From: a virus | Taxonomy: Duplodnaviria; Heunggongvirae; Uroviricota; Caudoviricetes | DNA: 12,799 nucleotides | Strand: one strand, 5' to 3' | Virus record (IMG/VR): IMGVR_UViG_2693429524_000004 | Location: 1-12,799 of that record | Part shown: positions 3,001 to 6,000 of the stretch, piece after piece | Layout of the letters: the number at the start of each line of letters is the position of its first letter | Numbering within the stretch: the first letter of the stretch is position 1 | Made by a program: the position numbers

Positions 3001-6000
3001 TCGGAAGGGCAGCCAGCAACAGGCCACCCTGCAATGGCATATTGCATGGTGTGCTCCTTATTTATACATAACGAAAACGCCTCGAGTGAAGCGTTATTGG
3101 TATGCATATAAAAAAGCCCTCACACTGGAGGGAAAAGAAGATTTCCAATAATCAGAACAAGTCGGCTCCTGTTTAGTTACGAGCGACATTGCTCCGTGTA
3201 TTCACTCGTTGGAATGAATACACAGTGCTTATTCGCAGCCTACATAATCATTCCGGTTATTATTACCATTTCAATATCACTATCTTTCATAATGATTGGA
3301 GTTGAGTTATCAACTTTACTTTTACTCCATTTTCCTGCATCAGTTTTTACCGCTCCACAATAAGAAAGCCAATCATCATCACAATGTTCTGGATCACTAA
3401 TTCTGACAAGAACACGTGATAGTGCTTTTTCGATACTTTCATCACAATTAGCATTTGTGTAATTGCCGTGAGACAATTTCAAATCGTTAACTTCATCTTC
3501 ATTGGCATCAAAAATATAGATTTCAGTCGACTCTGGAACATTTTCATAAACCATTAAAACTTTCATTTTTACCCCATATTGTTTATGCCAAAAATAAAGG
3601 CCACCATCAGGCAGCCTTGTTGTAAATGTTGCAGGTATCAAGTAAGTAATTAGATGGAGCGCCATAAATTATGAATTCATCGTTTGTCGGGTCCATCTCT
3701 TGGCCTATTGCCATTCTTGCGTCAGTGTCATCAGAGGCGAAGCATAAAACAGCCCACGCACCCATTGTTTTAAAAAGAACTGCAATTGGCTGTGGTTTTA
3801 CTGAATTTGCGTTAGCGCGAAAATCACAAATCGCACTTTCATGAAATTCCATATCTCAACTCAATCGTAATAAGCTGGAATTGATTTTCCGCGTTGTTTC
3901 TGGCGGCCTGAGCAAGTCACACCCATTTCACTGCGTGGCTTGCTGTAGTAAATACGGTTCTGTTTACGCTCGACTTCTTCTGCCTTCTTGCAGCGAAGGC
4001 TTCCGAGTGATATTGCTTTTTCAGAAAGGCTTAAACGTTTTCTCGGGGCTTCCTGAACAGGTTCCTCACTGTCTGTGCCGAAGATCGAATCGATGATGTT
4101 GCATATAGCATCACGCTCGATAGCCAGCTTTCTGCGCCGCTCATGACGGCGAGTTTTGGCATTTCCTGCAAATGTTGATTTCCCGCACACGATTACCGTC
4201 ATGATATTTTCCTCATGTGAAATGGCTTTGGTGGTGATGCGCCAGGTGCTGATCTTCTGGTTGCTGTCGTTGCAGCTGCAATTCACATCACCGCCAAACC
4301 CATCTCGTTTGGTATCTGTTTGCGCTTTGTCAGCGCCCCATCGAAGTTAAAGAGCCTGCCAATCTGTTCCGTTTGGCTTCCAGCTTCCTGCTGATGGCGA
4401 TAATAATGAACCAATGGTTCGATATTATCAAGAACTAATGGTACGAAAATTTTGTGATTTATTAACTCTACGAAATATGATTTTGATATATAAGGAAATT
4501 TATTTTTGTAAATGTTGCGGATGAAGGTTATGCGGCAGGGATCAGAATTTCGTGGTTTAGCAAGTTGTATCTATCAATTTTTCAATAAATACAATTGGTT
4601 ATGGTGTTATTAGGTGTGGCGAACGTGAGGCAAAGAAAACCCGGCTCGGTGGCCGGGTTGATGATTAGCGGTGTGGCCTTGAGCGATAATGCTCACACAC
4701 ATGTTCAAGATTTCCATGCCTTATCCGTTCATAGGCATTCACATGAACTTCTCGATCGAATTGGTCATTCAAATTGTATGTAGACATCTGTGTTTTCTCA
4801 TATTGGCGGCAGCCCTACAACCGCTTGAAAAAATGTACCAGACGCGCTAAGGTTACATCGCAAATATTGTGTACCTTAACAAGGGCTCCTTTTGGAGGCT
4901 CTGGTTAAACAGCATCAATGTCGGACTGGGGAGTTGGACATTGTGCTGAATGCTTTTGCATTATTGAGGCCGAACGTAAACCTTCAGAATTGAAGAGATG
5001 CGTTCGGCTTCTTCGTTTGTGATATCGTTAGGAATGCCTTTAATCGTTACTGTAACCCCTGATTCAGGTCGAAGAACTACTGGAAGATCATAGGTATGAA
5101 GTGCATTAGCCTTGCCTTCGACTTTTGTTGGTTCGCCAGCCAAATCTTTTTCCTCACTGGATTCTTTGTCAATCGGAGTGTATGGGATTTCTTCACCAGA
5201 CTGGAAAGCTACAAACTTTTTGATTGCACTTTCCATGCGGCTTTTATATGCAGTAATGCTGCTGTCGCTAGGCTTCGGCTCAGTTGCGTTGATGTATCGC
5301 TCGGCAAGCTCATTCACATCAAGCTGAGTAACATCACCCATTTCCTCTTCTTGGACTACCGTTAAGAGGCGAGCGGATGAGTTTTTTAAATTTCGAGCGG
5401 TGGCCTCCTTCATTATGTTCAGCGACATAAGCTCTTCAAGGAAGTCCTTGAATGCCTGCACGCTAACGTTTGACTTTGCCATTTGCTCTCTCTCTAAGTT
5501 ATTGACTCAGATCGAGTTTATCCAGGAATTGATTTGCATGCAAGACTCAAGTCTTGAGAATTTCCGTTCAAGATCCACTCTCAATAAAAAAGGCCGCACC
5601 TCTGCGACCTTTCATCTCCTAAATCTATTTCTCTTACCTAAAGAAACAGCAGGCTGGGTCAGCCCTAACAACTTCAAGCGCATCAGTCAGCGAAAGTTCA
5701 GTACTGTACTGATGCCATTTCATATCCTTCCGCATCCAATAGATTTTCCATCTATCCAGAGAACGTATGTACTTGATTCTTGCTGATGGCAGGATGTTTG
5801 TTTCACCTGGGTTGCCCTGCCACACGGGGCGCTGTTCGCCGATATCTATCGTTTGGTCATTGATGCTATAAACAATATCCAGTTCATTGCGGATATGTTC
5901 AGGCGGCCTTATGCTTTCAATGAATTGGTGAACTTCTTTTTTGACCGCTTGATATTCAAGGTCAGTGAACGCCATCTATCCTCCTCACCCAAACGTTTCT

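Follow-up and report, generated by a model that had tools for sequence, protein, structure and literature searches.

The N gene and the nut sites

The window analysed here is a stretch of 12,799 nucleotides (nt) of a Caudoviricetes virus (IMG/VR record IMGVR_UViG_2693429524_000004, positions 1 to 12,799). Its early region contains a gene encoding an N-type antitermination protein and two nut sites, nutL and nutR, each composed of boxA, a spacer and boxB and located on the transcribed strands of both early operons. The elements are arranged in the order candidate pL–nutL–N on the left side and cro (ending at 7049)–nutR–cII (starting at 7156) on the right side. Features of the module are listed below.

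3861-4202, minus strand: N antiterminator gene, 113 codons plus the stop codon (3861-3863), ATG start at 4202
4113-4166, minus strand: arginine-rich motif GNAKTRRHERRRKLAIER, predicted boxB-binding peptide, amino acids (aa) 13-30 of N, identical to that of P22 gp24
4077-4202, minus strand: P22-type N-terminal segment, aa 1-42 of N
3864-4019, minus strand: phage 21/HF4s/lambda-type C-terminal segment (by alignment), aa 62-113 of N, presumed to bind RNA polymerase
4346-4356, minus strand: nutL boxA GGCTCTTTAAC, a boxA match, the same as the phage 21 nutL boxA; P22 has CGCTCTTTAAC
4322-4336, minus strand: nutL boxB GCGCUGACAAAGCGC, 5-base-pair (bp) stem, GACAA loop, 9 nt after boxA
7057-7067, plus strand: nutR boxA CGCTCTTTATC, starting 8 nt after the cro stop codon; P22 has CGCTCTTTACC
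7075-7091, plus strand: nutR boxB ACCGCCGACAACGCGGU, 5-bp stem, C/C apposition, GACAA, 7 nt after boxA

Both boxB sequences are identical to those of the P22 genome BK000583, which was used as the P22 reference and in which nutL and nutR are annotated as 34-nt features. Each of the window sites shares 32/34 positions with its P22 counterpart, and the mismatches are confined to boxA or the spacer. At 4322-4336 the plus strand reads GCGCTTTGTCAGCGC and the transcribed minus strand GCGCTGACAAAGCGC, with a predicted fold of a 5-bp stem and a GACAA pentaloop (-7.1 kcal/mol, z -3.2). The plus-strand DNA at 7075-7091, ACCGCCGACAACGCGGT, is predicted to form a 5-bp stem with a 7-nt loop, C-GACAA-C (-5.9 kcal/mol), in which GACAA is closed by the C/C apposition and not by a pair.

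Both strands of the window were scanned for boxA with the pattern GCTCTT[TA]A. Only two boxA-like matches were found, and a GACAA hairpin lies 7-9 nt after each of them. Statements on boxA are based on comparison with the annotated sites of P22, phage 21 and lambda; no consensus for boxA was located in PMC3177189. The chance level of GACAA hairpins whose stem has 5 bp or more, estimated from dinucleotide shuffles of the window, is 0.21 per window. One further hairpin with a GACAA loop, CGAACAGACAAGGTTCG (9095-9111, minus strand), fits this level; it lies inside the primase gene, in antisense orientation and without boxA. The N leader contains another hairpin just after the nutL boxB (ACCAAAC-GAGATGG-GTTTGG(C), 4293-4313), which is also present in P22 and in phage Lambda_2E9. 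Rfam contains no family for nut or boxB; searched at the gathering threshold, its sole match in the window was the cIII thermoregulator described below.

Mosaic structure of the N protein

The open reading frame (ORF) ending at 3861 on the minus strand, whose translation opens with MTVIVCGKSTFAGNAKTRRHERRRKLAIERD... (also given as MTVIVCGKSTFAGNAKTRRHERRRKLAIERDAICNIIDSIFG...), appears in the mechanical ORF list with a GTG start at 4286 (141 aa). ATG 4202 is common to P22 gp24 and all of the homologues examined and is preceded by GAGGA. Judged by these sequences, the real start of N is ATG 4202, not GTG 4286. The protein matches the Pfam family PF25694 (N_peptide, 3.9e-25, above the cut-off) and phrog_271 (anti-termination protein N-like, 8.4e-45), as a member of the lambdoid N/nut antitermination system should.

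The arginine-rich motif is identical at 18/18 positions to that of the BK000583 gene 24 product. Its codons show six synonymous and no non-synonymous differences from those of P22, which indicates that the motif is under purifying selection; the DNA of this stretch is 73% identical. Among 76 IMG/VR relatives, the motif is unchanged in 73.

Similarity to known N proteins changes along the sequence. The first segment (aa 1-42) shares 39/42 residues with P22 gp24, compared with 16/40 for phage 21, 9/30 for lambda and 11/37 for 933W. In the second (aa 43-61), identity reaches 17-19/19 with relatives from E. coli and Stx phages and is 5/19 with P22. The third (aa 62-113) is closest to HF4s (49/52) and phage 21 (41/50), followed by lambda (24/49) and P22 gp24 (13/39), and the window DNA at 3897-4022 is 93.7% identical to that of phage 21. 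Thus, N is not a full-length orthologue of P22 gp24: residues 43-113 are unrelated or weakly similar to it, and the tblastn alignment covers query residues 1-75 only. The C-terminus of gp24 (...LPGVALYAAGHRKSKQITAR) is of the 933W/H-19B type, whereas that of the window protein is of the lambda/21 type.

Aligned in this way, N is a three-part natural mosaic, or chimera, combining P22-type RNA recognition with a phage 21/lambda-type half that presumably engages the polymerase. The initial annotation had described N as a P22-type protein carrying the P22-type arginine-rich peptide. The statement on the peptide is borne out in full, but the label fits only the RNA-recognition end of the protein (aa 1-42), because aa 62-113 are of the phage 21/HF4s/lambda type.

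N proteins have a three-region architecture, with an N-terminal motif for boxB, a central NusA-binding region and a C-terminal region that binds RNA polymerase (PMC3526286). The sole significant match of the window protein to a solved structure was lambda N in the antitermination complex 6GOV (E 1e-9), with the densest identity in the C-terminal stretch ERK..R.YYSKP...G.TCSGRQK..GKSIP. The C-terminal homology to lambda N in this complex is clear, and engagement of RNA polymerase by N is predicted. The complex of the P22 N peptide with boxB is available as PDB entry 1A4T (cited in PMC11480772 and PMC6023938). This entry was not recovered by PDB sequence searches with the whole N or with a 28-aa motif peptide, probably because its chain is too short.

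The phage 21 and HF4s/N7 N proteins share with the window the C-terminal half, SLGSLRCKKAEEVERKQNRIYYSKPRSEMGVTC.GRQK..., and the phage 21 nutL boxA with its upstream flank, CAGATTGGCAGGCTCTTTAAC, is as in the window. Their motifs, GTAKSRYKARRAELIAER in phage 21 and DNARNRRRARRQAQREQA in HF4s, are different, as are their boxB sequences (a hairpin containing ..CUAACC.. in phage 21 and UCCCGCC-GAAAU-GCGGGA in HF4s). The window therefore does not belong to the phage 21 specificity class, since N is alike in its C-terminal half only. Lambda N is of the same family and has the same three-part plan, including the pattern ERK..R.(W/Y)YSKP..G(I/V)TCSGRQK..GKSIP, but differs in its motif, MDAQTRRRERRAEKQAQW, and boxB, GCCCUGAA(G/A)AAGGGC.

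Matching of motif and boxB classes

Co-variation was examined in IMG/VR loci around relatives of five N types, collected in five single-protein scans and de-duplicated over 600 nt around the N start, which left 240 + 50 (approximately 290) loci in five motif classes. For each locus we scored the motif, nutL (the hairpin after boxA upstream of N) and nutR (a boxB at a distance of 1-5 kb on the opposite strand). Loci with a matching nutR boxB were distributed as follows.

P22 motif class: 54 loci, CCGCCGACAACGCGG
HF4s motif class: 72 loci, CCCGCCGAAATGCGGG
lambda motif class: 52 loci, GCCCTGAARAAGGGC
phage 21 motif class: 48 loci, CACCTCTAAYNRGGTG
933W motif class: 44 loci, TCGCTGACAAAGCGA

Wherever a nutR-side boxB was found, its class agreed with that of the motif, and the nutL class followed the motif class without exception in the scored loci; loci without a detectable nutR are mostly those short of flanking sequence. 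In all scorable loci with the P22 motif, the nutL boxB has the P22 sequence (one carries a C>T change that preserves pairing as G-U), and the nutR boxB has it in 54/54 loci with enough flank. Many independent recombinants among these loci are not claimed, as single-linkage k-mer clustering resolved the 54 loci into two clusters. The boxB sequences are invariant, while the spacers and flanks vary.

The C-terminal half of N behaves differently. It lies within approximately 200 nt of the motif codons, far nearer than nutR, and yet it is of the P22/933W type in 32 P22-motif loci and of the lambda/21 type in 23. Four motif classes (P22, HF4s, phage 21 and lambda) are found with the lambda/21-type C-terminus. 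The motif is always accompanied by a nutL and a distant nutR of its own class, whereas the C-terminal half of N, next to the motif, is freely exchanged.

The same P22-type nut sites also stand beside different immunity regions in P22, ST64T and the Cronobacter phage ENT47670. The Cronobacter repressor shares a short 33% identical stretch with the window cI, and those of P22 and ST64T show no match to it. Close counterparts of the window module are found in the Stx2a-converting phage Stx2_EH1965 (LC616032), in Lambda_2E9 and in a prophage of E. coli AMSHJX01, all with the P22 motif, both boxB sequences and a 933W-type cI. The AMSHJX01 protein is identical to the window N at 41/42, 19/19 and 50/52 positions of the three segments. 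Stx2_EH1965 differs in having the C-terminal tail ...KMKLGSKPLI and Lambda_2E9 in having a tail of the 933W/P22 type, which shows that the N C-terminus is exchanged independently of the motif. The version found in Stx2a-converting phages is 87% identical.

The window thus has all the marks of the P22 specificity class: the motif and the left and right boxB sequences. The initial annotation had placed the two GACAA-loop boxB hairpins at 4322-4336 and 7075-7091, which is exact in both coordinates and sequence, although the C/C apposition in nutR is absent from it. Its assignment of the nut sites to the P22 type holds by boxB identity but not by the loop, which is not diagnostic: the H-19B/933W class uses GACAA too. 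Because this loop is common to two motif families, the P22 class is marked by the motif together with the C/C-closed nutR. The proposed co-variation of peptide and boxB is supported, since those of the window belong to one specificity class and the five-class table contains no cross-class pair. Alignment of N and the nut sites to P22, lambda and phage 21 likewise did not assign peptide and boxB to different classes. Its remark on unlike stems carrying the same loop is correct and fits loop-centred recognition, but it is no test of it.

Immunity region and transcription signals

Genes and signals flanking the N/nut module are listed below; the candidate promoters and the terminator-like sites downstream of N come from consensus scans.

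6036-6743, minus strand: cI repressor, 235/235 aa identical to 933W cI, HTH_3 and Peptidase_S24 domains
6822-7049, plus strand: cro, last gene before nutR, translation identical to 933W Cro
7156-7455, plus strand: cII, first gene after nutR and the adjacent hairpin, Pfam Phage_CII (1.9e-34)
6736-6806, plus strand: OR operators oR3, oR2 and oR1, exact matches to 933W operators at 6736-6750, 6768-6782 and 6792-6806
6763-6790, plus strand: candidate pR (promoter scan), overlapped by operators, feeding cro and nutR
4403-4431, minus strand: candidate pL (TTGATA, 17 nt, CATTAT), approximately 47 nt upstream of the nutL boxA
7097-7127, plus strand: hairpin directly after nutR, candidate tR1 terminator or pause site
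3597-3618, minus strand: candidate tL1, first terminator-like hairpin with a T-run downstream of N, of putative function
3117-3132 and 3076-3095, minus strand: further terminator-like candidates in the pL operon

The sequence of the candidate pL is nearly identical to that just upstream of the annotated nutL of 933W (reference AF125520), and we infer that it acts as the pL promoter. The hairpin after nutR is predicted to be stable (-14.5 kcal/mol, z -4.0; none of 200 shuffles fold as well). Among nutR cassettes of the P22 type, 24/24 variants have a hairpin at the same place; those of P22, ST64T and the Cronobacter phage are unrelated in sequence, and a compensatory change from CTCATC/GATGAG to CCCATC/GATGGG (U-A to C-G, with U-G intermediates) was observed. 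This conservation in all 24 variants, despite unrelated sequences, and the compensatory change argue that the hairpin is functional; its role as tR1 is a candidate one.

Identity with 933W extends over cI, Cro and the three oR operators, so the prophage should be homoimmune with 933W. Read from these sequences, the window has 933W immunity in which N and both nut sites have been swapped for a set of P22 specificity. On the left side, divergence from 933W begins just after the pL start region, and little except boxB is shared through N. On the right side it is limited to approximately 100 nt, which begin inside boxA, next to cro, and stop just short of the cII ribosome-binding site. By comparison, P22 itself, a phage of Salmonella and not of E. 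coli as the window host, has a c2/cro immunity region with no BLAST match to the window, while resembling it in the motif, both boxB sequences and the layout, down to a hairpin just after nutR.

The N of 933W is a 127-aa protein of the H-19B type with the motif GNSRSRRRERLKAKALAN, and the 933W nut sites (1615-1681 and 5097-5142 in the 933W locus used) lack a canonical boxA. A literature search on 933W combined with boxB or nutL gave nothing useful.

Several other features of the window were recorded. A DUF3024 protein gene (5634-5975, minus strand), 96% identical to 933W L0084 and matching the PADLOC candidate defence model PDC-S43 (2.2e-41), lies between cI and pL, in the slot that rexAB fills in lambda. 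The same slot, which in 933W holds the stk kinase cluster, contains a 173-aa ORF (4961-5482, minus strand; phrog_2602) without a Pfam or PADLOC match, followed by a strong intrinsic terminator (4659-4638). The start of cIII in the pL operon is marked by the Rfam family Lambda_thermo (cIII thermoregulator; 3002-3060, minus strand, 88.5 bits, E 6e-21). Antisense to the 3′ end of cII, at the position of the lambda/P22 oop RNA terminator, lies a strong terminator-like hairpin and T-run (7401-7431, minus strand). The O-like replication gene contains a 21-nt unit repeated 3.9 times (7909-7993), which encodes GGAGAAR repeats and probably represents origin iterons.

At 8031-10229, within a toprim primase-helicase gene (8523-10403) and the upstream flank adjoining it, identity to the gene 61 region of phage ES18 from Salmonella is 88%. 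Other genes encode a Sak4-like annealase (1927-2607), SSB (1343-1930), an HNH endonuclease (11325-11912) and a DNA methyltransferase (11909-12439). Together with the ES18-like primase region, these genes indicate the mosaic make-up of the contig.

Antitermination model and alternative explanations

With a probability of roughly 90%, we interpret the locus as an ordinary N/nut module for processive antitermination in a lambdoid prophage of E. coli. The observations that carry this interpretation are the identities, positions, predicted folds and class matching described above. Binding, Nus dependence and read-through are ascribed to the module by analogy with the established model for N of lambda and P22 (PMC3526286, PMC11480772, PMC6023938). 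The pL and pR transcripts would carry nutL and nutR, respectively, and the arginine-rich helix of N would bind the boxB hairpins of the nascent RNA by folding onto their GACAA loops. boxA would recruit host NusB/NusE, and the rest of N would engage NusA and RNA polymerase, leading to read-through of downstream terminators. Transcription on the left side would continue past N to cIII, kil and the genes for recombination, and that on the right side past nutR to cII, the genes for replication and the nin region.

Four points weigh against this interpretation. In the alignment of N to 6GOV, nothing corresponds clearly to the central region with which lambda N binds NusA. The hairpin at 7097-7127 has a weak U-tract and failed the terminator scan, so the terminators overridden by N are candidates only. 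The loci in the class table share common descent, and a single immunity type is found in most of those with the P22 motif, so their counts are not independent events. Finally, the window is a 12.8-kb contig only, and the prophage may be defective elsewhere.

An alternative that we consider improbable is that N belongs functionally to the H-19B/933W group or cross-reacts with it, the GACAA boxB being a target of two motif families. The 933W nutL boxB (GCGCUGACAAAGCGC, in the transcribed strand GCGCTGACAAAGCGC) is indeed identical to that of the window and P22, and the 933W nutR boxB, UCGCUGACAAAGCGA, has the same loop; the 933W-class loci of IMG/VR have these nutL and nutR boxB sequences in 48 and 44 cases, respectively. 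Moreover, the two motifs share the pattern GN.(K/R)(T/S)RR.ER, and the window has the cI, cro and operators of 933W. However, the motif is that of P22 at every position and aa 1-42 resemble 933W N poorly; a C/C-closed nutR occurs in 0/44 loci with the 933W motif and in 54/54 with the P22 motif; and the canonical boxA of the window has no equivalent in the 933W nut sites. Only the nutL boxB is common to both, and identification of the protein as a 933W-type N was rejected on the basis of aa 1-42, nutR and boxA.

Even less credible is the explanation that the window derives from a decayed prophage, in which the elements were kept by recent descent and no longer work. It would agree with the length of the contig, in which lysis and structural genes were not seen, and with the divergence of only 2-8% among close relatives. 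It is opposed by the intact N ORF with its ribosome-binding site, by the intact cI, cro, cII and replication genes, by the exclusively synonymous motif changes relative to P22 at a DNA identity of 73%, and by the invariance of boxB where spacers and flanks vary. That the nut hairpins are random inverted repeats was rejected outright: about 0.2 GACAA hairpins are expected per window and one such hairpin exists at 9095-9111, but nutL and nutR are identical in boxB to the annotated P22 sites, are properly spaced after the only two boxA matches and are located precisely in the pL leader and between cro and cII.

With the antitermination module of P22 specificity retained as the preferred interpretation, a more speculative and on balance doubtful extension may be considered. 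Because the nutL boxB is identical in the P22 and 933W classes, the P22-type and H-19B/933W-type motifs might read the same boxB, and N could then act in trans on the early operons of a co-resident 933W-type Stx phage, or the reverse. If this were true, the separate swaps of nutL-N and of the ~100-nt nutR cassette inside an otherwise 933W-identical cI-cro block would mark a functional boundary set by nutR/boxA and not by the boxB loop.

Significance

The system is of a well-known kind. The module is common and annotated in E. coli genomes, and its exact sequence is already catalogued: the E. coli protein WP_053878029.1 is identical to N, and NCBI calls it "transcriptional antitermination N peptide" or "early gene regulator". 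Among complete E. coli genomes, 62 cover at least 80% of the N-nutL stretch (best identity 97.8%), and approximately 1,300 of 5,426 contain a relative.

Engineered N hybrids are reported to have established the arginine-rich motif as the specificity determinant, and the mosaic N of the window is their clean natural counterpart. The importance of the finding lies mainly in correct annotation, that is, of a complete early regulatory region in which 933W immunity is combined with N and nut sites of P22 specificity. No new biology is required, and the sole practical consequence would be a possible cross-talk of N with Stx phages that share its boxB.

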